Positions 3,333 to 55,070 of a stretch of 64,000 bases of DNA are shown here, piece after piece. The DNA is taken from contig CALXBY010000006.1 in assembly GCA_944386675.1 (NCBI GenBank), positions 330 through 64,329 on the forward strand, written 5' to 3'. The notes beneath the pieces are model-generated. The model was not told the origin of the DNA. It worked only from the letters and a program-made list of their open reading frames with translations, and searched no databases. Within the stretch, counting starts at the first letter, position 1. Each line of letters starts with the position of its first letter. The DNA comes from an uncultured Clostridia bacterium (GTDB taxonomy: Bacteria > Bacillota > Clostridia > TANB77 > CAG-508). The position numbers and the translations under genes were made by a program.

Positions 3333-4061
3333 ATGGCAACAATAAAAGTAAAAGGAATTGTATTAGCAGAAAATAATATGGGTGATTATGACAAAATGCT
3401 TACAATCTTAACACCGAATTTTGGAAAAATATCATGTGCTGCTAAAGGGGCAAGAAAACCCAAAAGTGCTCTTTTAGCAGGAACACAACTTTTTTGCTTC
3501 TCAGAATATTTAATGTATCAGGGGACAAGTACATATCATGTAAATTCTTGTGAAACAATAGAAATGTTTTATAAAATTAGAACAGATTTGGATAAATTAA
3601 AGTATGCTATTCACTTGAATAAAATCGTACAAGATGTAACAGATGAAAATGAAAATTGTTATAATATATTACAATTATATTTAAATGCATTATATATGAT
3701 AGCAGAAACTGAAAAAGATAGGGATTTAGTTGTAAGTATTTTTAAACTAAGATTGTTAAAAATATTAGGTTTTACTCCGAGAGTAATGGAATGTGTTAAT
3801 TGTAAAGAAAAACAAAATTTAAGTTATTTTAGTATACGAGATAATGGTTTTAAATGTGCAGCTTGTAGCAAGCAAGATAAATCTTCTATATTTATGTCAG
3901 AAAGTACGGCAAATGCCATTAAATATACAATATCAGCTCCAGCTAGGAAGGTATTTTCATTTAATTTAAAAAATGAATCATTAGAAGAGTTTAAATTAAT
4001 TACTAGAATTTATTTTAATGAAAAGATGGAAAAAGAATATAAACTAGAAGAAATATTTTAA
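3333..4061 (+). CDS. recO: DNA repair protein RecO
   Basis: OB-fold N-terminus, CxxC...CxxC zinc motif (CVNCKE...CAAC), synteny after era. Confidence 0.9.
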   Translation: MATIKVKGIVLAENNMGDYDKMLTILTPNFGKISCAAKGARKPKSALLAGTQLFCFSEYLMYQGTSTYHVNSCETIEMFYKIRTDLDKLKYAIHLNKIVQDVTDENENCYNILQLYLNALYMIAETEKDRDLVVSIFKLRLLKILGFTPRVMECVNCKEKQNLSYFSIRDNGFKCAACSKQDKSSIFMSESTANAIKYTISAPARKVFSFNLKNESLEEFKLITRIYFNEKMEKEYKLEEIF

Positions 4062-4217
4062 GATAAACGTTAAAAGATAGATAAATCAATAGTATTTTTT
4101 AGGCAGATGAAGATATGTTTTATAATTTGCTTAAAAAGGTTGAAAAAAAGAAAAATAACATATATAATAAGCATATAACATAAATTAGAAACATGAAAGA
4201 AGAAGGGAGCGATTTTT

Positions 4218-4745
4218 ATGAAAATAAAAATAATAGGAAAGGAACTAAAGATAACAGAAGCAATTAACGATTATGTTGAAAAAAAATTAGACAGAATTGA
4301 TAAATATTTTGAAGATGCAGAAGCTGATGTTACATTAAGAACTGAGAAAAATGAACAAATAGCAGAAATTTGTGTATTAGCAGGAGGAGAAAAATTTAGA
4401 GCAGTAACAGAAGATAAAGATATGTATGCATCTATTGATAAAGATATAGATATATTGGAAGGTCAAATTAGAAAATCAAAAACAAAAAAAGAAAAAATGT
4501 TAAGAGAAGGTAGCATAAAAAACATGGAAGTTTCAGATGATAAGAGTTCTGAAATAACAAATGAAATTATAAAAACATCTTATTATGAAATTAAACCAAT
4601 GTTACCAGAAGATGCTGTATTAAAACTACAAGAAAAACCATCTCATAATTTCTTAACATTTATCAATGTAGAAACAGGAAAAGTAAATGTAATACATAAA
4701 TTAAAAGATGGAAAGAACTATGGTTTAGTAGAACCAGAGGCGTAG
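4218..4745 (+). CDS. hpf: Ribosome hibernation promoting factor, long form
   Basis: MKIKIIGKELKITEAINDYVEKKLDRIDKYF is typical of RaiA/HPF. The 175-aa length with a C-terminal dimerisation domain fits the long form. Confidence 0.9.
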   Translation: MKIKIIGKELKITEAINDYVEKKLDRIDKYFEDAEADVTLRTEKNEQIAEICVLAGGEKFRAVTEDKDMYASIDKDIDILEGQIRKSKTKKEKMLREGSIKNMEVSDDKSSEITNEIIKTSYYEIKPMLPEDAVLKLQEKPSHNFLTFINVETGKVNVIHKLKDGKNYGLVEPEA

Positions 4746-4749
4746 GAAT

Positions 4750-4785
4750 ATAGCTAACCTATTTATAGGTTAGCCATATTTTTTA
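4750..4785 (+). terminator. Rho-independent terminator after hpf
   Basis: gctaacct/aggttagc stem plus T run. Confidence 0.8.
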
Positions 4786-4813
4786 TAGTTTATATATTAT
4801 GGAGTAGTAAAAG

Positions 4814-6271
4814 ATGAAACTAAAGAATAAAACAGTATTTTTTATAATTTCGGTTATCATATCCTTTATTATTTTATGCTTTTTTGTAACAGGCTATTAT
4901 TCCATTGACACAGCAAGAATTTATTCACAGGGGTATATAGATTATGCAATCAAAGATGCCTATATAAAAGATGGAAGGTGGATTTCTGCTATTATATTTG
5001 TAATTGTAGGACTTATAAATCCAAGTATAGAAACAATGTATATTGTAAACATAATTTTGGCGATTATTATTCTATCTTTTAGTGTAATACAAATATACGA
5101 TATTATCGAAAAGTGTAAAAAATTAGAAAAGACAAAAAGCAAGATAATCGCTTTTTTGTTAAGTTATACATATATTTTTAATTTTTTGATTGTAGATGTA
5201 CTGAAATTTATAGATAGTTTTGTTATATCAATAAGTATATTAATATTTATCATTGCAATAAAGAAAATTATATTTGAAAAAAAGAAAAGACTAGGACTAT
5301 TATTAACTATATTTGGAGTTATATGTTATCAAGGAACAATACCTGTATATATTGCAACAGCGATTTTAGTAACACTATTAGAAAATAAAAGAATCAATAA
5401 AGAATATTTTAAAAAGATATTGCCATGTGCTATTTCTATCATCATAGCTGCTATTATTAGCCTTATTATTATTAATATAGTACCTATGATAACTGGAATG
5501 ACTAAAACAGATAGGATGAATGGAATAGACTATATCGAAAATATCAGAAAAAATCTGATGGTAATGAATGAAACTATTCTTTATTCATTCTATATGTTTC
5601 CACAATATGTATGGATAAGCATAGGGATGTTTACGATAATTATTTCAATAATTTATGGAATAAAGAAAAAAAATATGAATTATCCGATAAATATATTATT
5701 TATATTTATGATGTATATTTTTAGCTCTCTTGTAATGTTTCCAATACAACCTTTTAATAATGCACCAAGAGTAGCTTTGGTATTAGGGGAAAGTATTAGT
5801 GCAATGTATATATATAGTTATTGTACGAATTTTGAAAGACAAAAAATGAACTTATATGAAAAAACAATACTTATAATGATAATTATATATTTTATAGTTA
5901 CAATAATATCAATAATGAAAAGTACATATCAATACAAGCTAGGAAATATAATAGATGAGCAATTTTCTGAAAAAATAGAAAATGAAATTGTAAACTTAGA
6001 CAAACAAGGAATTACAATTAATAAAATTGGAATAAAATATACAGGTAATGGAAAAAACATTCAAAAATATAGTAGACTAGTGCGTAATCAATCTATGTAT
6101 ATGATGGGACTATATACAGTAATACTAAATGAATTTTATACAGGAAGAACATTGTCAAGTGTACAGGACTTTACAGAGCAGTTGGAACAAGAATATTTTG
6201 AAAATTCAAGCAAAGAAGAAGTACAATTTCAAAGTATAGGTAATGTATTATATATTTTAATTGATTTATAA
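4814..6271 (+). CDS. Polytopic membrane protein of unknown function (possibly a GT-C-like glycosyltransferase)
   Basis: 485 aa with many predicted TM helices. No motif could be assigned with certainty. Confidence 0.6.
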   Translation: MKLKNKTVFFIISVIISFIILCFFVTGYYSIDTARIYSQGYIDYAIKDAYIKDGRWISAIIFVIVGLINPSIETMYIVNIILAIIILSFSVIQIYDIIEKCKKLEKTKSKIIAFLLSYTYIFNFLIVDVLKFIDSFVISISILIFIIAIKKIIFEKKKRLGLLLTIFGVICYQGTIPVYIATAILVTLLENKRINKEYFKKILPCAISIIIAAIISLIIINIVPMITGMTKTDRMNGIDYIENIRKNLMVMNETILYSFYMFPQYVWISIGMFTIIISIIYGIKKKNMNYPINILFIFMMYIFSSLVMFPIQPFNNAPRVALVLGESISAMYIYSYCTNFERQKMNLYEKTILIMIIIYFIVTIISIMKSTYQYKLGNIIDEQFSEKIENEIVNLDKQGITINKIGIKYTGNGKNIQKYSRLVRNQSMYMMGLYTVILNEFYTGRTLSSVQDFTEQLEQEYFENSSKEEVQFQSIGNVLYILIDL

Positions 6272-6278
6272 ATTGAAA

Positions 6279-6407
6279 ATAAGAAAAGCGGCTTTGCCAC
6301 ATTGTAAAATTGCTTCGCAATTATTACACGAATATAAGAAGCTTAACCTTGTTGTATATAGAAAAATCTTATATATGGTCAAGATAAAAGTCGATTTTTC
6401 TATACAA
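6279..6407. repeat. ~130-bp structured intergenic repeat, copy 1 (partner inverted at 44654-44785)
   Basis: About 95% identical by eye to the reverse complement of 44654-44785. Internal hairpins: tgtaaaattgc-ttc-gcaattattaca and ttgtatatagaaaaatc...gatttttctatacaa. Confidence 0.85.
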
Positions 6408-27585: not shown

Positions 27586-28593
27586 ATGAAAAAAAGAATA
27601 TTAACAGGTGATAGACCAACAGGAAAATTACATATAGGTCATTATTTTGGTTCATTAAAAAAGAGAATAGAAATGCAAAATAGTGGGGATTATGATATGT
27701 ATATCTTAATTGCAGACGTGCAAGCATTAACAGATAATTTTAATAATCCAGAAAAAGTAAGAAAAAATGTGAGAGAATTAGCAATGGATTATTTATCATG
27801 TGGGATAGATCCAGAAAAAACAACAATATACATTCAATCTATGATACCAGAAACAGCAGAATTAACCATATATTATTCAAATTTAGTAACCATTGCAAGG
27901 CTTGAAAGAAATCCAACCGTAAAAACAGAAATTGCACAAAAAAGAGAACTATTTGGAGAAAGTGTAACTTATGGATTTTTAGGATATCCAGTAAGCCAAG
28001 CAGCAGATATTACAACTTTTGATGGAGAGTTAGTTCCAGCAGGAGAAGACCAAGAGCCTTTAATTGAACAATGTAGAGAAATTGTAAGAAAATTCAATAG
28101 TATTTATGGAGAAGTTCTAGTAGAACCTAAAATTGTATTATCAGAAGGAAAAAGAATTAAAGGATTAGACGGAAATGAAAAAATGGGAAAATCTCTTGGA
28201 AATGCAATCTATTTATCAGATTCAGAAGAGGAAATTACAAAAAAAGTTATGAGTGCTGTAACAGATCCAAATAGAATAAAAAAAGAGGATTTAGGAAATC
28301 CTGATATATGTATGGTAGCATATTACCATAAATTATTTTCAAACCAAGAAGAAGTTGATACAGTATGCAATGAATGTAAAGCAGGAAAAAGAGGTTGTGT
28401 TGCTTGTAAAAAACAATTAGCAAAAAATATTATAGAATACTTAAGACCAATTAGAGAAAAAAGAAAATATTATGAAGAGCATCCAGAATTAGTAGATAAG
28501 ATTTTAAAAGAGGGAACAGAGAAAGCAAGAAAAACAGCACAAGCAACAATGAAAAAAGTGAAAAAAGCAATGAAATTAGACTATTTTGAATAA
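27586..28593 (+). CDS. trpS: Tryptophan--tRNA ligase
   Basis: TGDRPTGKLHIGHYFG (HIGH) and KMGKS (KMSKS). Start moved from 27550, which overlaps the -10, to 27586, which has AAAGGTGG upstream. Confidence 0.93.
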   Translation: MKKRILTGDRPTGKLHIGHYFGSLKKRIEMQNSGDYDMYILIADVQALTDNFNNPEKVRKNVRELAMDYLSCGIDPEKTTIYIQSMIPETAELTIYYSNLVTIARLERNPTVKTEIAQKRELFGESVTYGFLGYPVSQAADITTFDGELVPAGEDQEPLIEQCREIVRKFNSIYGEVLVEPKIVLSEGKRIKGLDGNEKMGKSLGNAIYLSDSEEEITKKVMSAVTDPNRIKKEDLGNPDICMVAYYHKLFSNQEEVDTVCNECKAGKRGCVACKKQLAKNIIEYLRPIREKRKYYEEHPELVDKILKEGTEKARKTAQATMKKVKKAMKLDYFE

Positions 28594-28598
28594 GAATA

Positions 28599-28706
28599 GT
28601 TGCCAAAGGGGACGGGGCATTTTGGCAACTTATAATATAAGTGTAATAAAAGATAATTTTTAAATATAAATCAAAGTTGCCAAAATGCCCCGTCCCCTTT
28701 GGCAAC
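28599..28706. repeat. Pair of inverted 31-nt hairpin units with a GGGGACGG loop, filling the trpS-obg spacer
   Basis: Unit 28599-28629 is gttgccaaaggggacggggcattttggcaac. Unit 28676-28706 is its exact reverse complement. The obg RBS follows within 3 nt. Confidence 0.8.
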
Positions 28707-30441: not shown

Positions 30442-33171
30442 TTGGAAAATAAGAATTGGTTTAACAAAGGAATTAAAGATGTCGAAAAAGAGTTAGAAAC
30501 AAATCAAGAAACAGGTTTATCGCAAGAAGAAGTTTCAAAAAGAAGAGAAAAATATGGCTTGAATCAACTAAAAGAAAAGAAAAAGAAATCACTACTTATG
30601 AGATTTATAGATCAATTTAAAGATTTTTCTATTATTATTTTAATTATTGCTGCTATTGTATCAGGATTTGTAGGTGTTGCAGAAGGAGAAGGTATTACAG
30701 ATACGATTATCATTTTAATTGTTGTTATTTTAAATGCAGTAATTGGTGTAACACAAGAATCAAAAGCAGAAAAATCATTAGAAGCATTGCAAAAATTGAC
30801 AGACCATGCATCTAAAGTTGTAAGAGATGGAAATGTAACCGTTGTTCCAGCAAAAGAATTAGTACCAGGTGACATTGTTGTATTAGATACAGGAGATTAC
30901 ATACCAGCAGATTTAAGAATAATAGAAGCAGTTAATTTAAAAACACAAGAATCTTCATTAACGGGAGAATCTGTACCAGTAGATAAAACAACAGAAAAAA
31001 TTGAAGGAGAAGATGTAGGAATTGGTGATAGAACCAATATGCTATTCTCATCTAGTCTAGTAACTTATGGTAGAGGAAAAGGAATTGTTGTAGAAACAGG
31101 AATGACAACAGAGGTTGGAAAAATTGCAGAAATGATAAATGAAACAGAAGAACAAATTACGCCTTTACAACAAAAATTAAATAAATTAGGAAAAACTTTA
31201 GGAATTACAGCCATCATTATTTGTGTGGTTATCTTTATAATAGGATTATTCCAACAAAAAGAACCAATTCATATGTTCATGACAGCTGTATCATTAGCAG
31301 TTGCTGCAATTCCAGAAGGATTGGTAGCCGTATCAACAATTGTTTTAGCAATTGGTGTACAAAAAATGGTAAAAAGAAATGCTATTGTAAAAAAATTACC
31401 AGCAGTTGAAACATTAGGAAGTGCAACCGTTATTTGTTCAGATAAAACAGGAACTTTAACACAAAACAAAATGACAGTAGAAAAAGTATTCTTAAATGGA
31501 GAAATAAAAGACTTAAGTGAAATCGATAGCAAAAATGTATCAGAAGATATGACCACATTGGTATATGCAAATATGTTATGTAATGATACCAAAATTGCAA
31601 AAGATGGAACATTAACAGGAGACCCAACAGAAACTGCATTAGTAGATATGGCATTTAAATTAAATTTTGACCCAAGTATCTATGACAGAATGATACGTAT
31701 CTCAGAAGTACCATTTGATTCTGATAGAAAATTAATGACAACGGTCAATAAAGTAAACGAAAAATACATCGCATATACTAAGGGCGGTGTAGATGAATTA
31801 TTAAGAATTTGTAAAGGATATTTATACAATAATGAAATAAAAAATGACCTAGACAATTATGCAGTTACCATAAGACAAAAAAATGAAGAAATGGCAAAAG
31901 AGGCTTTAAGAGTTTTAGCATGTGGATACAAAGAATTTGACCATGAACCAACTGACAAAGAATTAGAAAATATAGAAAGTGAATTAATCTTTGTGGGAAT
32001 GGTTGGAATGATAGACCCACCAAGAGAAGAAGCAAAAAAAGCTGTAGAAAAATGTAAAACAGCAGGAATCAAAACAGTAATGATTACAGGAGACCACAAA
32101 ATTACAGCAACAGCTATTGCTAAGAAGTTAGGAATTCTAGAAAATGAAGATGAAGCAATTACTGGTTTAGACCTAGAAAAGATGTCTGATGAAGAACTAC
32201 AAAAAAATGTAAGACATTATTCTGTATATGCGAGAGTTTCTCCAGAACATAAAGTAAGAATTGTAAAAGCATGGCAAAAAAACGGAGAAATTGTAGCCAT
32301 GACAGGAGATGGTGTAAATGATAGTCCAGCATTAAAAACAGCAGATATTGGTTGTGCAATGGGAATTGTTGGAACAGATGTTGCAAAAGAAGCAGCAGAC
32401 GTTATCTTAACAGATGATAACTTTGCAACGATTGTATCAGCAGTAGAAGAAGGAAGAAGAATTTATGATAATATCTTAAAAGTTATTCAATTCTTATTAT
32501 CAAGTAATATAGGAGAAGTTGTTGTATTATTCTTAGCAACATTATTAACCCCATTATTTGCTGAGTGGTTTGGCATAACAGATATTGCACACTTAGAAAT
32601 TTTATTACCAATTCACATTTTATGGATAAACTTAGTAACAGACTCATTACCAGCATTAGCATTAGCATTTGACCCAGCAAATGCAGATATTATGAATAGA
32701 AAACCAAATAAACCAGGAAAAGGCGTTTTTACAAAGGGAATGACATGGCGAATTGTATATCAAGGTGTTATGATAGGCTTATTAACACTTGGAGCATTTA
32801 TGATAGGACTTGCAACAACGACAGAACCAATTGATGGATTAACATTAGATGAATCAAAAATAGAAGTAGGTCAAACAATGGCGTTTGTTACACTAGCCTT
32901 TTCAGAATTAGTCCATGTATTTAATGTAAGAAATAACAAAAAATCAATCTTTAAAACAAAAGTATTTAATAATAGTAAATTAATATGGGCAGTACTTGGA
33001 TCAGCGCTATTAATGGGAGTTATCTTAGCAGTGCCAGCTTTAAGAGCAATCTTTAGTATACCAGTATTACCAACACAAAATATCTTAGAATTAATTGGTT
33101 TAGTTATAGCACCATTAATTATTGTAGAATTGTTTAAATTGTTTAAGATTAATAGTTTTAAAGATGAATAA
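30442..33171 (+). CDS. Calcium-translocating P-type ATPase (P2A/PMCA-SERCA-like)
   Basis: TTG start after AAAGGAGG. Motifs DKTGTLT, TGES, MTGDGVNDSPALK, and 10 TM helices. Confidence 0.93.
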   Translation: MENKNWFNKGIKDVEKELETNQETGLSQEEVSKRREKYGLNQLKEKKKKSLLMRFIDQFKDFSIIILIIAAIVSGFVGVAEGEGITDTIIILIVVILNAVIGVTQESKAEKSLEALQKLTDHASKVVRDGNVTVVPAKELVPGDIVVLDTGDYIPADLRIIEAVNLKTQESSLTGESVPVDKTTEKIEGEDVGIGDRTNMLFSSSLVTYGRGKGIVVETGMTTEVGKIAEMINETEEQITPLQQKLNKLGKTLGITAIIICVVIFIIGLFQQKEPIHMFMTAVSLAVAAIPEGLVAVSTIVLAIGVQKMVKRNAIVKKLPAVETLGSATVICSDKTGTLTQNKMTVEKVFLNGEIKDLSEIDSKNVSEDMTTLVYANMLCNDTKIAKDGTLTGDPTETALVDMAFKLNFDPSIYDRMIRISEVPFDSDRKLMTTVNKVNEKYIAYTKGGVDELLRICKGYLYNNEIKNDLDNYAVTIRQKNEEMAKEALRVLACGYKEFDHEPTDKELENIESELIFVGMVGMIDPPREEAKKAVEKCKTAGIKTVMITGDHKITATAIAKKLGILENEDEAITGLDLEKMSDEELQKNVRHYSVYARVSPEHKVRIVKAWQKNGEIVAMTGDGVNDSPALKTADIGCAMGIVGTDVAKEAADVILTDDNFATIVSAVEEGRRIYDNILKVIQFLLSSNIGEVVVLFLATLLTPLFAEWFGITDIAHLEILLPIHILWINLVTDSLPALALAFDPANADIMNRKPNKPGKGVFTKGMTWRIVYQGVMIGLLTLGAFMIGLATTTEPIDGLTLDESKIEVGQTMAFVTLAFSELVHVFNVRNNKKSIFKTKVFNNSKLIWAVLGSALLMGVILAVPALRAIFSIPVLPTQNILELIGLVIAPLIIVELFKLFKINSFKDE

Positions 33172-33173
33172 GA

Positions 33174-33482
33174 AAAAAGGGAATTTGGGGACGGACTCAT
33201 TTTTCCCTTTTTTAAATTTATCCAAGATAAAAAATATAGAATATAAAGTTATTTCACAATTTTGTATAAGCTAAATTTTCATAGAAATTCTAAAAGAAAA
33301 AAGTGTGCTTCTCTCATTATTGCTATAAAGTATAAGCAAAATGAGCAGTCCTCACTTTTTTCTTTAATAATAACTAAATTCAAATTTAGATATGCAAAAT
33401 CGTTTCATTTTTTATATTTTATATTTTTTTATTTTTTACTTTAAAAAAGGGAAAAATGAGTCCGTCCCCAAATTCCCTTTTT
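33174..33482. mobile_element. MITE-like palindromic element with perfect 43-bp TIRs of a different type and the same core family as 21135-21565
   Basis: TIR 33174-33216 (aaaaagggaatttggggacggactcatttttcccttttttaaa) is the reverse complement of 33440-33482. The core arms are homologous, in inverted orientation, to the arms of the 21.2-kb element. Confidence 0.75.
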
Positions 33483-33570
33483 ACACAATCCTTAATAAAA
33501 AATTAATAAATCCTCTATTTATTATTAATAAAAATGTGGTATAGTATATATGCTAGAGGAGGAAAAAATT

Positions 33571-34366: not shown

Positions 34367-36457
34367 ATGCAAAATATAAGAGATTCAATATTGTTAAAAT
34401 TTTTATGTTATATATTAATCCCTATAATGATTTTCGTTTTAGCAATTAGTATTATAGATATATCCATTACTTCACAATATGGAGAAATGGATGGACCAGA
34501 AGAATATATTGAAACAGAAGAATTTGGAAGAGAATATTTAGCAACATTGATTTCTAATGTTCAAGATATTAATAGGGATAAAAGGCGAATGAAAGCAAGT
34601 GCAGAGGAAGTAGATACTTCAATGGATTTAAATGCGACAGAGACAAGTACAGAAGATATTGAAAGAGAAAATCCATATGATAATTATAGTGAAATAGAAG
34701 ATGAAAGCTATGCATATCCAGTATATTATGAATCAATACAATATAATAACACTAGATTAAGTCCATATATCAATTATATCATTATTGATAAAGAAACTGG
34801 AAATATGTTTACCAATATTAGGTCAAACAATTACCTTGAAGAAATCAATAAATTAAGAGCAGAAAAGACCAATTGGAGCTATCAAGATGGAAATATTGCA
34901 ACAAATATTACTAGCATTAATCAGGAAAGTGCAAAATATATAACATCATCTTATTATTCTGTAGATAATTTTGAAGGATATGAGATATATTCAAACATTG
35001 ACCCAACGATGTTAAATTATTCAAATTCCTTATATGTTCAACAAAGTGTATATAATCTATTTAAAGGACATGAAAACTTACCAAGCTATTTAATACCATT
35101 GTCAGCAATTTCAATTATTGCAATGATTGTGTATTTAATTTGGGCAACAGGACATGAAAAAGGAAAAGAAGGTATTCAATTAAATAGTTTAGATAAAATT
35201 TCTTATGAAATCATATCAATTGTGATTATGTTTATCATTGGAATGATGATAAGTTTTGCTGTAGCAAGTATAGAATCACAAATTCCTCAAAGGATTCTCG
35301 TATCTGTATTTTTGTTATGTTATTTAATTGGATATGCAAGTTTAGCAGTATGGGTTGCTACAACCATTAGACGATTAAAAGCAAAACAATTTATCCGTTC
35401 ATTCTTAACCTATAAAGTTTGTAGATGGATAAAAGTAACCATTCAAAAAATATTTAGAAAAGTAACAGATAAAGAAAATACAAATCGAAAAATCACAATA
35501 ATCTATTGGGGATTTGTTGTCATTAGTATTATACTAGCATGCACTATGTGGAGTGGAATCGGCTTAATAATTTTAATAGTCTTTTGGATATGGGTATATT
35601 ACAAATTATTACAATATAATAAAAAGATACAAAAAATAAATGAGGCATTGAGAAATATATATGAAGGAAATCCAAATGTAAAACTAAATGAAGAAGAATT
35701 AGAAGGAACATTAAAAATTATGGCAAAATACATTAATGATATAGCAGGAGGATTTACCAATGCCATTGAACAAAGTTTAAAATCAGAAAGACTAAAAACA
35801 GAATTAATCACAAATGTGTCACATGATATCAAAACACCGTTAACTTCAATTATAAACTATGTAGATTTATTGAAAAAAGAAGATATTCAAAATGCACAAG
35901 TAGAACAATATATTGCTGTGTTAGATAAAAAGTCACAAAGACTAAAAAAACTAATAGAAGACTTAGTAGAAGCGTCAAAAGTATCTTCTGGAAATGTAAA
36001 GCTAAATATGGAAGTGATTAACTTAAAAGAATTATTAAATCAAACAGTTGGAGAGTTTGAAGATAAGTTGGAAAAGAAAAACTTAAAAATAGAAATGGAT
36101 TTACCAAATGAAAATGTATTGATTAAAGCTGATAATCGATACTTATATAGAGTAATAGAAAATGTATTTAGTAATATTACAAAATATGCATTAGAAGGTT
36201 CTAGAGTGTATATCAAGCTAGAAAAACAAAAAGAAGAGGTATATCTAGAATTTAAAAATATATCAAAAGATAAATTAAATATTAGTGCAGAGGAATTAAT
36301 GCAACGATTTGTAAGAGGTGATAAATCTAGATACACAGAAGGAAGTGGATTAGGTCTTTCCATAGCAGAAAGTTTAACAGAATTACAAGGAGGAAAATTC
36401 AAGATTGATATAGATGGAGACCTATTCAAAGTAGAAATTAAATGGAAAAGTGAGTGA
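34367..36457 (+). CDS. Sensor histidine kinase (two TM blocks, HisKA plus HATPase_c)
   Basis: H-box SHDIKTPLTSI and G-box GSGLGLSIA. Start chosen at the ATG with GAAGGTGA upstream; the frame is open from 34286. Confidence 0.85.
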   Translation: MQNIRDSILLKFLCYILIPIMIFVLAISIIDISITSQYGEMDGPEEYIETEEFGREYLATLISNVQDINRDKRRMKASAEEVDTSMDLNATETSTEDIERENPYDNYSEIEDESYAYPVYYESIQYNNTRLSPYINYIIIDKETGNMFTNIRSNNYLEEINKLRAEKTNWSYQDGNIATNITSINQESAKYITSSYYSVDNFEGYEIYSNIDPTMLNYSNSLYVQQSVYNLFKGHENLPSYLIPLSAISIIAMIVYLIWATGHEKGKEGIQLNSLDKISYEIISIVIMFIIGMMISFAVASIESQIPQRILVSVFLLCYLIGYASLAVWVATTIRRLKAKQFIRSFLTYKVCRWIKVTIQKIFRKVTDKENTNRKITIIYWGFVVISIILACTMWSGIGLIILIVFWIWVYYKLLQYNKKIQKINEALRNIYEGNPNVKLNEEELEGTLKIMAKYINDIAGGFTNAIEQSLKSERLKTELITNVSHDIKTPLTSIINYVDLLKKEDIQNAQVEQYIAVLDKKSQRLKKLIEDLVEASKVSSGNVKLNMEVINLKELLNQTVGEFEDKLEKKNLKIEMDLPNENVLIKADNRYLYRVIENVFSNITKYALEGSRVYIKLEKQKEEVYLEFKNISKDKLNISAEELMQRFVRGDKSRYTEGSGLGLSIAESLTELQGGKFKIDIDGDLFKVEIKWKSE

Positions 36458-36501
36458 TAGAGATGTGCCAATCGTTCAAAAAGAGAACGAAGGGGACAGA
36501 T
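36458..36501. repeat. Degenerate solo copy of the 45-bp GGGAC TIR
   Basis: tagagatgtgccaatcgttcaaaaagagaacgaaggggacagat aligns with tagggacgtgccaaatcgtttcaaaatgagaccaaaagggacagac. Confidence 0.6.
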
Positions 36502-36703: not shown

Positions 36704-39274
36704 ATGTATGTTTTTAATAGGATAACGGTAAATCCACAATTACCAAAGAGAATAGAAAAATTAGGAGAAATATCTAATAACTTATGGTGGTCTTGGAATA
36801 CAGAATTTTTGAGATTGTTCCAAAAGATAGATATGGACCTATGGGAGCAATGTTCTAAAAACCCTGTGAAATTTTTAAAACAAGTATCACAAGAAAGATT
36901 AGAAAAAGCAGCAAAAGATTTAAGTTTCTTAAAGGAATATGACAAAGTTGCTGAAAATTTTGAAGATTATATGAATAGCAAAAATACGTGGTTTGCTAGT
37001 AAATATCCAAGTAATAAAAAAGATTTAATTGCATATTTCTCAGCTGAATATGGATTAGATCAAACAATACCAATTTATTCAGGAGGACTTGGAATTTTAT
37101 CAGGAGACCATCTGAAATCTGCAAGTGATTTAGGTATTCCACTTGTAGGTGTAGGATTATTATACAAAAATGGATATTTTAATCAAAAAATTAATGGATA
37201 TGGACAACAAGAAACAGAATATAATAATATTGATTTATATGATTTACCAATCAATCCAGTAAAAGATGACAAAGGTGATGATTTAACCATTTATGTTAAA
37301 TTCCCTAAAAGAAGATTGTATCTAAAAGTATGGCAAGTTAACGTAGGAAGAGTCAAATTATATCTATTAGACTCTGATATTCCTAAAAACAATGAAGAAG
37401 ATAGAGATGTGACTTTAAGATTATATGGCGGAGACCAAGAAATGAGAATTAGACAAGAAATTGTCTTAGGTATGGCAGGCGTTAGTCTTCTTACAAAGTA
37501 TTTAGGATTAAAGCCAACAATTTATCATATGAATGAGGGACATTCTGCATTTTTAAATTTAGAAATTATCAAAAATATAATCAAAGAAAAACAAGTTTCA
37601 TTTGAAGTAGCAAAAGATATAGCAAGTTCAAAAACTGTATTTACAACACATACACCAGTACCTGCTGGAAATGATATATTCCCAATCGAATTAGTGGAAA
37701 AATATTTCAAAGATTTCTGGCCAAGATTAGGAATTTCAAGAGAAGAATTCTTAAAATTAGGAATGAAGCCAGGACCAGACTTAGATAAAGGCTTTAATAT
37801 GGGAATATTAGCATTAAAAATTGCAGGAAAGAAAAATGGAGTTAGTAAACTTCATGGAGCAGTTTCTAGAGAATTGTTTAGTGAAGTTTGGCCTAATATT
37901 GCAGCAAATGAATCACCAATAGGATATGTTACAAATGGAATCCATACTTGTTCATGGCTTGCACCTAGATTAAAAGAATTATACAACAAATATTTGATTC
38001 CTTATTGGCAAGACAATATGCACCATGATTATGTATGGGAGAAAATTAAAAATATTCCAGATGATAAATTATGGAGTGCTCACGTAGAAAGAAAAAGAAA
38101 ATTAATTAATTTAGTAAAAGAGAACACAACAGAAAGATTAAGAAGATCTGGATATAGTTATGAAGAGATTAATGAAATTGTGTCAAAATTAAATCCAGAT
38201 GCATTAACAATTGGTTTTGCTAGAAGATTTGCAACATACAAAAGAGCAACATTAATATTTAAAGATATCGAAAGAATGACTCAAATTATGAATAATGCTG
38301 GAAGACCAGTACAATTAATCTTTGCAGGAAAAGCACATCCAGCAGATAAAGAGGGACAAGATTTAATAAAATATATTCATGAAGTATCTATGATGCCACA
38401 ATTTAAAGGAAAAATATTCTTATTGGAAAACTACAATATTGCTATGTCAAGATATCTAGTAAGTGGTGTAGATGTATGGTTAAACAATCCAAGAAGACCA
38501 ATGGAAGCATCAGGAACGAGTGGACAAAAAGCATCTGTAAATGGTGTTATCAACTTTAGTGTACTAGATGGTTGGTGGGCTGAAGGATATACACAAAATA
38601 ATGGATGGACAATTGGAACAAATGCAGAATATGATTCATATGAAGCACAAGATATGGCAGATAGCCAAAGTATGTATCATACATTAGAAGAAAAAATTAT
38701 TCCAACATATTATGACAGAGATAAAAATGGAATATCAAAAAGATGGCTAGAAATCATGAAAAATTCAATTATAACTACAGGAGGAAAATATAGTACAGCC
38801 AGAATGTTAGTAGATTATACAAATCAATTGTATATTCCATTATGTAATCTTACAAAGAAATATTATGAAAATATTGATAATGTAGCAGCATATAATGCAT
38901 GGAAAAAAGATTTATATGAAAATTGGAAAGATATTAAAATTACACAAGAAAATACTAATCTTGATAATATAACATTAGATGCTGGAAATAATATTGAAGT
39001 AGGATGTGAAGTACAACTTCCAAATATTGATGTAGAAAATGTAACTGTAGAAGCTTATTATGGAAAAATACTAGATAATGGTGTAGTAGAAAATGTAAGT
39101 ATTATTCCAATGCAATTACAAGAAGCAGATGAAGAGCATAGAAAATATTATTTTACAACAAAGATAGAGTTAACAACCGGAGGAAACTATGGTTATACAT
39201 TTAGAGTTATGCCAAAACATGAAATGTTATTAGAACCAGCAAACTTGAATTTAGTAAAATGGATAACCAAATAG
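36704..39274 (+). CDS. Alpha-glucan (maltodextrin/glycogen) phosphorylase, GT35 with DUF3417-type N-terminus
   Basis: NPQLPKRIEKLGEISNNLWWSWN N-terminus and EASGTSGQKASVNG pyridoxal-phosphate region. Confidence 0.9.
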   Translation: MYVFNRITVNPQLPKRIEKLGEISNNLWWSWNTEFLRLFQKIDMDLWEQCSKNPVKFLKQVSQERLEKAAKDLSFLKEYDKVAENFEDYMNSKNTWFASKYPSNKKDLIAYFSAEYGLDQTIPIYSGGLGILSGDHLKSASDLGIPLVGVGLLYKNGYFNQKINGYGQQETEYNNIDLYDLPINPVKDDKGDDLTIYVKFPKRRLYLKVWQVNVGRVKLYLLDSDIPKNNEEDRDVTLRLYGGDQEMRIRQEIVLGMAGVSLLTKYLGLKPTIYHMNEGHSAFLNLEIIKNIIKEKQVSFEVAKDIASSKTVFTTHTPVPAGNDIFPIELVEKYFKDFWPRLGISREEFLKLGMKPGPDLDKGFNMGILALKIAGKKNGVSKLHGAVSRELFSEVWPNIAANESPIGYVTNGIHTCSWLAPRLKELYNKYLIPYWQDNMHHDYVWEKIKNIPDDKLWSAHVERKRKLINLVKENTTERLRRSGYSYEEINEIVSKLNPDALTIGFARRFATYKRATLIFKDIERMTQIMNNAGRPVQLIFAGKAHPADKEGQDLIKYIHEVSMMPQFKGKIFLLENYNIAMSRYLVSGVDVWLNNPRRPMEASGTSGQKASVNGVINFSVLDGWWAEGYTQNNGWTIGTNAEYDSYEAQDMADSQSMYHTLEEKIIPTYYDRDKNGISKRWLEIMKNSIITTGGKYSTARMLVDYTNQLYIPLCNLTKKYYENIDNVAAYNAWKKDLYENWKDIKITQENTNLDNITLDAGNNIEVGCEVQLPNIDVENVTVEAYYGKILDNGVVENVSIIPMQLQEADEEHRKYYFTTKIELTTGGNYGYTFRVMPKHEMLLEPANLNLVKWITK

Positions 39275-39615
39275 GGACGTGCCAAATCGTTTCAAAATGA
39301 AACCAAAAGGGACAGACCTATCCCAAAAATCTTTTTTAAGATTATGATATCATAAAACATCATATTAAATAATTTGTGAAATGACGAATGTGAATGAAAT
39401 CATAATAGAAAAAATTAAGGTATCTAATAGGAGAATCTCAAAACTTAATTTTGAGAGGTGCCTATTAGATACCTTTAATTTTTCTTTATGATGTAATGTT
39501 AGCCGAGGAATGCTATAAATTATTTAATATAATGTTTTATTTAGCTTCATAGTAATAATTTTTTCAAAGGACTGTCCCTTTTGGTTTCATTTTGAAACGA
39601 TTTGGCACGTCCCTA
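39272..39615. mobile_element. Second MITE-like element with the same 45-bp TIRs (44/45 match), TA flanks and a different palindromic core
   Basis: TIR-L 39274-39318 and TIR-R 39569-39613. TA lies at 39272-73 and 39614-15. Confidence 0.8.
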
Positions 39616-44653: not shown

Positions 44654-44785
44654 TTGTATAGGAAAAATCGACTTTTATCTTGACCATATATAAGATTTTT
44701 CCGTATACAACAAGGTTAAGCTTCTTATATTTGTGTGATAATTGCGAAGCAATTTTACACATGTGGCGAAGTCGATTTTCTTATA
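44654..44785. repeat. ~130-bp structured intergenic repeat, copy 2 (inverted relative to 6279-6407)
   Basis: Its reverse complement matches 6279-6407 with a few substitutions or indels. Confidence 0.85.
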
Positions 44786-46426: not shown

Positions 46427-47071
46427 ATGCAGGAAACTTTAGAGCTAATATTACAAGAGATAAGAGAAGTAAAAACAAAAGTAGATACATTAGAAAAGAA
46501 AGTAGACGCTCTAGAAATTAAAGTAGATAATTTAGAAGAAAAATTCGATCAAAAGTTATCAGCATTAGAAGAAAAATTCGATCAAAAGTTATCAGCATTA
46601 GAAGAAAAATTCAATCAAAGGTTATCAGCATTAGAAGAAAAATTTGAACAAAAGTTATCAGCATTAGAAGAAAAATTTGAACAAAAGTTATCAGCATTAG
46701 AAGAAAAATTCAATCAAAAGCTATCAGCATTAGAAGAAAATTTCAATCAAAAGTTATCAATACTAGAAGAAAATTTTGACAAAAAATTATTATTACAAGA
46801 AGAAAGATATGACAAAAAATTAGTATCATTAGAAGAAAGATTAACAAAAATCATAGATGAAAAAATTGAGAAAGCAATTAGTAAACAAAGTAAGGAAATA
46901 GCAGCTGAATTTCATAATCTGTTTAGATATTTAGATAAAAGATTTAAACAAATCGAAGAAAAACTAGATGAAGAAATTTTAAATAATAGACTAGCTCATG
47001 AATCTTATGAAACAAGACTATGTAAAATTGAAGCAGGACAGAATTACTTAGAAAAAAGAATTGTTGGCTAA
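46427..47071 (+). CDS. Coiled-coil protein with 11-residue tandem repeats
   Basis: RBS AAGGAGGTGA. The unit LSALEEKF(D/N/E)QK is repeated about 7 times perfectly, with degenerate flanking units. Confidence 0.75.
   Translation: MQETLELILQEIREVKTKVDTLEKKVDALEIKVDNLEEKFDQKLSALEEKFDQKLSALEEKFNQRLSALEEKFEQKLSALEEKFEQKLSALEEKFNQKLSALEENFNQKLSILEENFDKKLLLQEERYDKKLVSLEERLTKIIDEKIEKAISKQSKEIAAEFHNLFRYLDKRFKQIEEKLDEEILNNRLAHESYETRLCKIEAGQNYLEKRIVG
46523..46852 (+). repeat. Tandem 33-bp repeat, ~10 units, within the coiled-coil CDS
   Basis: Unit ttatcagcattagaagaaaaattcgatcaaaag is iterated head to tail. The central units are nearly identical. Confidence 0.9.

Positions 47072-53344: not shown

Positions 53345-55070
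<1,726 letters not shown>

Follow-up and report, generated by a model that had tools for sequence, protein, structure and literature searches.

Probable REP-type palindromic repeats with a terminal TAG in frame at the stop codons of neighbouring genes in uncultured Clostridia

The closest described relatives of the repeats reported here are the TIRtrons, in which a gene resembling those for REP-associated tyrosine transposases (RAYTs), termed TIRYT, lies between long terminal inverted repeats (TIRs) that are also found elsewhere in the genome as single copies, dimers or groups (Di Nocera, De Gregorio and Rocco 2013, PMC3733652). Most TIRYTs fall into the helix-turn-helix (HTH)-bearing TnpA-REP subclass 2.1, which corresponds to RAYT group 1 (Quentin et al. 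2018, PMC6006769), and RAYT group 1 occurs in Clostridia (Bertels et al. 2017, PMC5581495). The termini of GTAG-type repetitive extragenic palindromic (REP) sequences often provide the TAG stop codon of neighbouring genes (Di Nocera et al. 2013, PMC3733652). Here we describe element B, a palindromic element in a 64,000-nucleotide stretch of contig CALXBY010000006.1 from an uncultured Clostridia bacterium; the whole stretch is called the window below. Element B is probably a non-autonomous palindromic repeat of two inverted 47-nt units and a palindromic spacer, built like a REP doublet forming a hairpin (REPIN) or a miniature inverted-repeat transposable element (MITE). It would belong to the repeat family of a RAYT system, with its stop-codon phase brought about by landing or swapping of copies, erosion and selection.

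This class of repeat is already known: RAYT- or TIRYT-linked REP-type repeats sit at convergent 3' ends, and their TAG tips serve as stops. New are the group of hosts, the build of the unit, how strictly the phase rule holds and how it is linked to a TA/TG polymorphism of the ends, and the occurrence of long, short and flipped alleles at unchanged junctions.

Element B and the phase of its terminal TAG

Element B (39272-39615, 344 bp) lies between two convergent genes. Its left end (39272-39318, plus strand) is one 47-nt repeat unit, TAGGGACGTGCCAAATCGTTTCAAAATGAAACCAAAAGGGACAGACC, and the first three bases of this unit (39272-39274) are the stop codon of the gene for an alpha-glucan (maltodextrin/glycogen) phosphorylase, GlgP (36704-39274, plus strand, 856 aa). 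The right end (39569-39615, minus strand) is the inverted 47-nt unit, with the last three bases, CTA (39613-39615), forming the TAG stop of a gene for a TmcAL-like nucleotidyltransferase (PRK13670; 39613-40923, minus strand). With the TA counted, each end is 47 nt long and the inverted copies differ at one base; over a 45-nt span they are identical at 44 of 45 positions, the sole mismatch being A/T (GGGACAGACC vs GGGACAGTCC). The core between them (39319-39568) is an AT-rich imperfect palindrome of 250 bp that has its centre near 39444-39448, with a self-inverted match of 74% over 190 nt. When the whole element was folded as RNA, a single long hairpin was predicted (-157 kcal/mol, z = -17.6), with both terminal TAG/CTA triplets inside the base of the stem.

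A sister, element A (21135-21565, 431 bp), has perfect 47-nt ends at 21135-21181 and 21519-21565, and its TAG and CTA tips are the stops of SpoIVB (19905-21137, plus strand) and MurC (21563-22945, minus strand). The ends of element B are the same as these except for one G>A change (AATGAGACC vs AATGAAACC) and the A/T position, and no similarity was found between the two cores. The window contains four copies of the 20-mer GGGACGTGCCAAATCGTTTC, where zero would be expected. A decayed single unit, TAGAGATGTGCCAATCGTTCAAAAAGAGAACGAAGGGGACAGA (36458-36501, plus strand), stands directly 3' of the TGA stop of a histidine kinase gene (36455-36457). It is orthologous to intact units found at that gene end in two related contigs (L069 and L063; related contigs carry L numbers throughout), and its TAG is in frame with the kinase gene. 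The window thus holds four intact ends and one decayed end of this repeat, while TAG is a minority stop elsewhere in the window (7 of 48 other long open reading frames, ORFs). An earlier note on this DNA, made from the sequence alone, had described the 44/45 match of the ends, their near identity to those of element A, the unrelated hairpin core, the use of TAG as the stop of both the phosphorylase gene and tmcAL, and the in-frame TAG of the decayed copy, and all of this was borne out.

The same note had proposed that the phase of the TAG relative to neighbouring genes is not random. The repeat was traced by scanning species-representative genomes with the exact 20-mer, which returned 85 stretches from about 20 species-level metagenome-assembled genomes (MAGs) labelled as uncultured Clostridia, Eubacteriales or Bacillota. 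For the phase survey of these loci, up to three mismatches to the 20-mer were accepted, giving 112 ends from about 20 MAGs that were grouped by flank similarity into 64 clusters, and ORFs of at least 100 codons running up to an end were counted. At TA-type ends that a gene reads into, the TAG was in frame in 21 of 21 independent clusters (30 distinct junctions; p about 1e-10 against an expectation of 1/3 per end). Where other genes end at a TA-type end, the host stop lies 3-13 nt upstream and never within the repeat. The non-TA ends (TG, GG or CA) gave another picture: genes read into them in frame 1 in five clusters, terminating at a TGA 26 nt into the repeat with the tail LGTCQIVSK, and in frame 2 in one cluster, terminating at +49, with no cluster in frame 0. 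The association of end type with frame was strong (Fisher p about 3e-6). Random phase was not seen, and we conclude that the terminal TAG stands in a strongly non-random phase to the genes beside it.

Single units have their TAG end facing the upstream gene. Use of their inner end (reverse complement of TAGGTCTGTCCC) as a stop was also looked for; almost no genes face an inner end, and L084 provides the sole case.

The repeat family, its probable transposase and known systems

In single fragmented MAGs, 10-13 repeat loci were counted. The 20-mer was absent from viral contigs, and nothing therefore points to a phage. Pairing of units into doublets by blastn-short left about 64 units unpaired, and the doublets ranged from a 49-bp perfect palindrome to 475 bp; the majority of the copies found are single 47-nt units. 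Many copies occur in extragenic DNA, as singles and as inverted doublets, as in REP/REPIN-RAYT systems. They sit in 3' spacers, where hardly any DNA is left over between the gene and the unit.

The conserved repeat starts exactly at T(A/G)GGGAC, with a sharp conservation boundary at position 0/-1, and its terminal dinucleotide is TA or TG. In the TG-type elements of L032, L021 and L056, one end is TG and the other CA, indicating that the dinucleotide belongs to the inverted repeat and does not stem from a duplicated target. Direct repeats flanked 11 of 84 copies family-wide, against a null of 14, and no duplication of at least 7 nt was found flanking copies. A 12-nt direct repeat around one unit, AATTTGTTCAAT, was considered as a long target duplication and dismissed as a one-off without family-wide excess; it is found in L052 (4483-4590), L057 (5326-5420) and L058 (780-877), where a single unit 3' of a Pth-like gene is followed by a repeat of the preceding 12 nt. 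The flank consensus is weak, at 0.3-0.7 bit per position.

When folded as single-stranded DNA, the full end gives two hairpins. The first is TGGAACGT-TAGGG-ACGTGCCA, with the TAG in the loop, and the second is TCGTTTCAAAATGAAACGA, from which the TAG lies 15 nt away. In master copies, which enclose a gene, the full inverted repeat runs 8-9 nt beyond the TA. The window copies are without this outer arm of hairpin 1 and have coding sequence in its place.

The gene between the master ends is clearest in L001, where 55-nt inverted repeats, TGGAACGTTAGGGACGTGCCAAATCGTTTCAAAATGAAACGAAAGGGACAGACCT, at 3904-3958 and 5082-5136 are 96% complementary, contain the 47-mer of the window, and flank an ORF of 251 aa (4164-4919), with ileS on one side and a gene for an ABC ATPase on the other. 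This arrangement recurs in L083, L056 and L025, always between these two neighbours. The four enzymes are only 66% identical, although their repeats are near-identical and the 20-mer is identical across about 20 species.

The 251-aa ORF matches Pfam Y1_Tnp (E 7e-9) and, at its C-terminus, HTH_11 (residues 216-249). Its best NCBIfam model is REP_Tyr_transpos (E 5e-17, 62 bits), compared with 20 bits for the IS200 model. The database contained 219 homologues, and in an alignment of 29 of them H60, H62, Y120, N124 and P125 are invariant (HxH; Y-x3-N-P). A single-sequence phmmer search of the enzyme against the PDB returned nothing; TnpA-REP was reached only by profile and fold searches. The profile of the 29 homologues found E. 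coli TnpA-REP (4er8) as best hit (E 4e-4; ISDra2 TnpA 0.56), and for the AlphaFold model (mean predicted local distance difference test score, pLDDT, 79.5) Foldseek ranked 4er8_A first (E 9e-6), ahead of the TnpA structures of IS608 and ISDra2. No DDE gene was seen, and the Y1 enzyme was the only transposase found between these ends. By sequence and predicted fold, the enzyme between the ends is an HUH/Y1 transposase of the REP-associated (RAYT/TIRYT) kind and not a DDE enzyme. Since inverted ends flank an HUH/Y1 transposase with an HTH whose nearest relative is TnpA-REP, the family fits the REP/REPIN-RAYT kind, in its TIRtron/TIRYT variant. A second, distant RAYT-like gene (26% identical) occurs in L078 (1668-2868) and L028 (5823-6912), within its own inverted repeats of 39-58 nt, TGTCCTTTTGGGGACGTTTCTGTTTGGGACA, a copy of which is also present at about 5700-5730 in L041.

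Several features are shared with TIRtrons: a Y1 gene with a C-terminal HTH lies between long 55-nt inverted repeats (96% complementary) and not short REPs, the repeats are dispersed in moderate numbers, singly, as dimers or in groups, the ends carry a G-rich GGGGAC-type motif, and the gene is single-copy at a conserved locus. TG-type ends, GGGGACGT, match the TIRYT motif GGGG[AT][CG]A[CG] at 6 of 8 positions, GGGGACGT is also found in the second TIRtron of L078 and L028, and the inner repeat is GGGACAGA (GGGACAG). The hosts differ, however, being uncultured low-GC gut Clostridia, which are not mentioned in the survey of Di Nocera et al. (PMC3733652); the dimers can enclose palindromic cores of 250-340 bp; and systematic use of the termini as stop codons has not been reported for TIR repeats.

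The resemblance to the gammaproteobacterial GTAG REPs and REPINs of E. coli, Pseudomonas and Stenotrophomonas lies in palindromic extragenic repeats that are tied to a vertically inherited HUH-Y1 gene, prefer 3' spacers, especially those between convergent genes, use TAG termini as stops, and form long hairpins as inverted doublets. Classical GTAG REPs consist of a 20-40-nt hairpin after an unpaired GTAG, whereas the unit described here is 47-55 nt long and has two hairpins, with the TAG in the outer loop. The tag is GTTAG/GTTGG (CGT-TAG-GG or GT-TGG-GG), the copy number appears lower, and the phylum is different.

With IS200/IS605 elements and their palindrome-associated miniature derivatives, the family has in common the fold and chemistry of the enzyme, the hairpin ends and the lack of a target duplication. 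The distance from the TAG to hairpin 2 would suit a cleavage point like that of IS200/IS605, about 15-19 nt on the 5' side of a hairpin. These elements nevertheless have no inverted terminal repeats, in contrast to the 47-55-nt inverted ends seen here; their TnpA has Q instead of N four residues after the catalytic tyrosine and no HTH tail; and they insert 3' of a fixed tetra- or pentanucleotide, whereas the family described here shows only a weak flank consensus.

TA-duplicating MITEs such as the Correia elements of Neisseria and IS630-derived MITEs are also small, non-coding, gene-adjacent and co-transcribed, and also have inverted ends, but they are mobilized by DDE enzymes with a true TA duplication, while in the present family the dinucleotide is inside the inverted repeat and the partner is a Y1 enzyme. 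Finally, the stop-proximal, ribosome-stalling E. coli REPs, as cited in PMC12306157 (its ref. 17), place a stable hairpin within 15 nt of the stop. The arrangement here is similar, except that the stop is inside the base of the predicted hairpin and part of the repeat.

Orthologous junctions, alleles and other repeats

The earlier note had asked whether the proteins ending at the element were truncated or extended. Comparison with orthologues gave no sign of either for SpoIVB, MurC and GlgP, and the TmcAL-like protein is one residue shorter. SpoIVB ends in ...KQSKEVK*(TAG) in the window and in ...KQTREIN*(TGA) in L057, which has no repeat; for MurC, the corresponding ends are ...IGPMLIC*(TAG) and ...IGPMLLK*(TAA). 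GlgP ends in ...KWITK*(TAG) in the window, compared with ...KWVTK*(TAA) in L087 and ...KWITK*(TAA) in L088 and L089, and the phosphorylase stop is at the codon position of TAA/TAG in the orthologues of L086-L089. For the Pth-like protein the situation is reversed: it ends in ...AMNLFN*(TAG, followed by the single unit) in L052, L057 and L058, and in ...AMNKFN*(TAA) without a repeat in the window. The TmcAL-like protein ends in ...HKLVQ* in the window and in L086, and in ...HKLITL* or ...KKIITI* in relatives without the repeat. The repeat TAG is therefore at the ancestral stop codon in four of five proteins (SpoIVB, MurC, GlgP, Pth-like) and one codon early in the TmcAL-like protein. An exact-protein look-up with the TmcAL-like ORF gave no match, the likely reason being that the ORF as listed begins at an upstream TTG.

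The spacers themselves turn over fast. Between glgP and tmcAL, the window has element B, L086 a 49-bp palindromic variant, L087 a hairpin of another family, and L088 a plain terminator hairpin. Between spoIVB and murC, the spacers of L026 (about 6019-6062) and L058 (about 3538-3584) consist wholly of a 36-bp hairpin of a second family, TAGAGGGATTCGGGGACGGAGCTTAAAATCCCTCTA. Its TAG is the MurC stop at the native position and is out of frame for SpoIVB, which gains 15 extra residues by read-through. In L057 (about 1925-2667), a short coiled-coil ORF with repeated GLRNEMHEQIN motifs is found between spoIVB and murC in place of element A.

In two orthologous pairs the junction has shortened. L086 has AAG TAG, 14 nt and then TAGGGACG, where the window has AAA directly followed by TAGGGACG; and L078 has TAA-TGGAACAT-TAGGGACG, where L010 has TAGGGGACG.

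Other samples of the window's species were recovered by exact-protein look-ups. At murC-spoIVB, an identical 431-bp element A was present in three contigs, the window included, and in seven contigs the same TAG and CTA enclosed a palindrome of 49 bp, TAGGGACGTGCCAAATCGTTTCAAAATGAAACGATTTGGtACGTCtCTA or TAGaGACG...CGTCCCTA. The flanks of the window and of L129, a short-allele contig, are identical over 1,400 nt and 879 nt on the two sides (>2.2 kb). The short 49-bp allele has two changed bases in its right arm, 4 nt and 10 nt from the end, while the arms of the long allele are perfect, and the L129-type short allele is also found in more diverged haplotypes. At glgP-tmcAL, element B was present with 3 differences in L127, and in L126 (4069-4412) it was present as the reverse complement (336/344 identity), with flanks and GlgP protein identical to those of the window. 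In every allele, the TAG/CTA junctions are unchanged and the stops of both genes are kept, as expected of an element whose tips both end in TAG. Element content and orientation thus differ between near-identical genomes, as in active mobile elements, with an enzyme or recombination as the possible cause. For murC-spoIVB, these sequences are most simply read as a very recent exchange of the whole element, the limits of which lie within about 3 nt of the termini; the long/short change may also stem from homologous recombination that imported an allele from another strain.

Among the short alleles (L129, L131-L134, L136, L137), the G>A change (TAGaGACG) is on the left arm in L131 and L133 and on the right arm in the L129 type. 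To judge from the sequences, it looks as if the 49-bp palindrome also flips.

The window contains further repeats. A motif in the core of element B, GTAATGTTAGCCGAGGAATG (39477-39556), recurs in intergenic DNA of L041 (5592-5671) and L021 (2585-2641), in both MAGs 3' of genes and beside other hairpin repeats, and by their sequence these spacers resemble mosaics made up of small repeats. A third palindromic element, C (33156-33500), has terminator-like hairpins, AAAAAAGGGAATTTGGGGACGGACTCATTTTTCCCTTTTTT, as its ends. Its core is an inverted element A core at 81-88% identity, so that one core appears between two different kinds of ends, and this core is also present in an element of L017 (1192-1527). 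The possibility that the TIRs of element C are diverged A/B ends was rejected, as only the GGGGACG motif is common to both, and on this comparison element C is treated as a separate family. A hairpin repeat, GTTGCCAAAGGGGACGGGGCATTTTGGCAAC, occurs as a doublet (28597-28706) after an ORF ending at 28593 and as a single copy (53378-53412) just upstream of a groEL-like gene; Rfam returned only below-threshold chance matches for it. GGGGACGG sits in the loop of this repeat and of element C, and in the A/B family a GGGACG motif spans the loop and 3' arm of hairpin 1. These sequences suggest several related repeat families within one genome.

Also repeated in the window is a 98-nt non-coding sequence (6303-6400 and 44662-44759; inverted, 96% complementary, 38 kb apart) that contains AAATTGCTTCGCAATT and is not a tRNA; a similar motif lies 3' of the TmcAL-like gene in L112. 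Nine tandem 33-bp repeats of 11 codons each are found at 46466-46875, with 40-nt units putatively readable as ...LSALEEKF..., and four 65-nt direct repeats (14534, 15270, 16320 and 16764) start near ATGGAGAATGCATCAAAAGC and are putatively readable as similar protein starts, MENASKALLIAAG...

Origin of the phase and its consequences

HUH-Y1 enzymes of the RAYT/TIRYT kind act on single-stranded DNA hairpins and make no target duplication. In the scenario that we prefer, copies would land next to stop codons or be swapped by cleavage and joining at the repeat termini. Small deletions could then fuse the host stop with the repeat TAG; a deletion that merges the host stop with the repeat TA(G) always leaves an in-frame TAG at the old stop position. 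Purifying selection would retain only those junctions that end translation at once, including junctions created by TGG>TAG changes, which are single transitions and would rescue frame-0 read-through of a TG-type end. The predicted hairpin, once transcribed, probably also serves both mRNAs as a two-way structure at their 3' ends.

The most trivial explanation of the phase would be chance, or an artefact of taking the first stop as the end of an ORF. Four or five in-frame ends in a single window have a probability of about 1%, and ORF ends are indeed defined by the first in-frame stop. An out-of-frame TAG would, however, let ORFs run on into the repeat, which is seen at TG-type ends and never at TA-type ends; curated profiles reach within 1-5 profile positions of the profile end in four window proteins, with 1-3 residues left over; and with 21 of 21 independent junctions in phase this explanation can practically be discarded. 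Scarcely more credible is the view, close to the description of the element in the earlier note as flanked by TA, that it is an IS630/Tc1-mariner-type MITE in which a duplicated TA target and the first G of the repeat spell TAG by an accident of sequence. All four intact window ends are TA-flanked, and since TA is self-complementary, the window alone cannot separate a duplication from a part of the inverted repeat. The relatives can: their TG...CA arrangement in L032, L021 and L056 is inverted and not direct, the inverted repeat of the master copies extends past the TA, the copies are not accompanied by duplications of 7 nt or longer, and the gene between the master ends encodes a Y1 HUH transposase. 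An accident of sequence would also not account for 21 of 21 ends in phase, and the idea of a TA-flanked TIR transposon was therefore abandoned.

A more serious alternative is that insertion is directed by the enzyme, which would cut and join at T^TA(A/G)-type sites and place the unit 5' of or in the host stop, leaving selection a minor role. Much would fit: the repeat TAG is the ancestral stop codon in four of five comparisons; among 16 cases in which the gene does not stop at the TAG, 9 have a host stop that touches or overlaps the outer 8-9-nt arm; TAA or TGA stands 3' of the inner end in 8 of 15 independent in-frame single units, where about 20-25% would be expected, as if the host stop had been displaced to the far side of the insert; single units point their TAG end to the upstream gene; the weak flank consensus TGG(A/T)(A/C)C(G/A)T resembles the 5' arm of hairpin 1, as expected if the target is like the cleavage site; and whole-element replacement reaches to about 3 nt from the terminus while the flanks are untouched. 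Yet 11 clusters (8 of TG type and 3 of TA type) face gene starts, 11-38 nt from the start codon and hard against the ribosome-binding site, so stop codons are not obligatory targets. TG-type ends moreover fall within the final codons of genes, in frames 1 and 2; the two orthologous pairs have spacer and outer arm in one species and a merged junction in the other, which points to a change after insertion; and no empty-versus-filled pair from one species was found that would document a fresh insertion. We consider purely directed insertion unlikely, although clearly more plausible than the two preceding accounts. Selection and erosion appear favoured over targeting by the TA/TG-by-frame pattern and the two orthologous pairs, as read from sequence, while element-for-element replacement at fixed termini within one species may keep an enzyme-directed component alive. 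It is also conceivable, if doubtful, and compatible with the preferred scenario, that the repeat is kept at the stop for a useful transcribed hairpin acting as bidirectional terminator, 3'-end protector or brake on translation termination. The phase would then reflect selection for function and more than mere tolerance. The predicted fold with both stops in its base would suit such a role, as would the ordinary terminator hairpins or other hairpin repeats in the same spacers of relatives (L087, L088), the conservation of both convergent stops through replacement and inversion, the reported G-U pairing in REP stems and preferred 3' location (PMC3733652), and the down-regulation of translation by stop-proximal REPs, as cited in PMC12306157. 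Less supportive are the consensus scan of element B, with one weak terminator-like site on the minus strand and promoter-like sites at chance level, and an Rfam scan of 20.9-40 kb (E up to 1), in which no credible family was found for element A or B and the sole matches were chance microRNA models on another hairpin at 28.6 kb. The coexistence of long, short and inverted alleles on near-identical backgrounds likewise suggests little functional difference among them.

Some observations also weigh against the combination of RAYT-driven landing, erosion and selection that we prefer. We know of no organism in which RAYT-driven spread of REPs has been shown directly. The REP_Tyr_transpos score of 62 is below the curated cut-off of 80, and the published TIRYT motif is matched only approximately. 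No RAYT gene was found in the 64-kb window by tblastn, and the enzyme link comes from related MAGs. The direction of the long/short change at murC-spoIVB is one that we infer. Finally, selection by itself offers no obvious reason why genes never read TA-type ends in frame 1 or 2 when TG-type ends tolerate tails of 9-16 residues.

A more far-reaching and quite speculative idea is that the Y1 enzyme cuts and rejoins precisely at the T^TAGGG termini and could thereby install, swap and flip elements at host stops, making the repeat a stop-codon-homing, self-entrenching mobile repeat. If this were true, the element would own the stops of both its neighbours, murC and spoIVB among them, and since its loss would cost these genes their stops, only replacement by another family member would be possible.

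The findings extend the RAYT/TIRYT-linked repeat families to uncultured low-GC gut Clostridia, with a family that is clean and easily traced. They turn a published aside, that REP tips "often" supply TAG, into a quantified rule, with 21 of 21 ends in phase and a TA/TG dimorphism that tracks frame and gene context. For annotation of such genomes, TAG followed by GGGACG marks a repeat-borne stop, and apparent C-terminal tails such as LGTCQIVSK are repeat-encoded. The natural long, short and flipped alleles could be used to test how REP-type repeats move.

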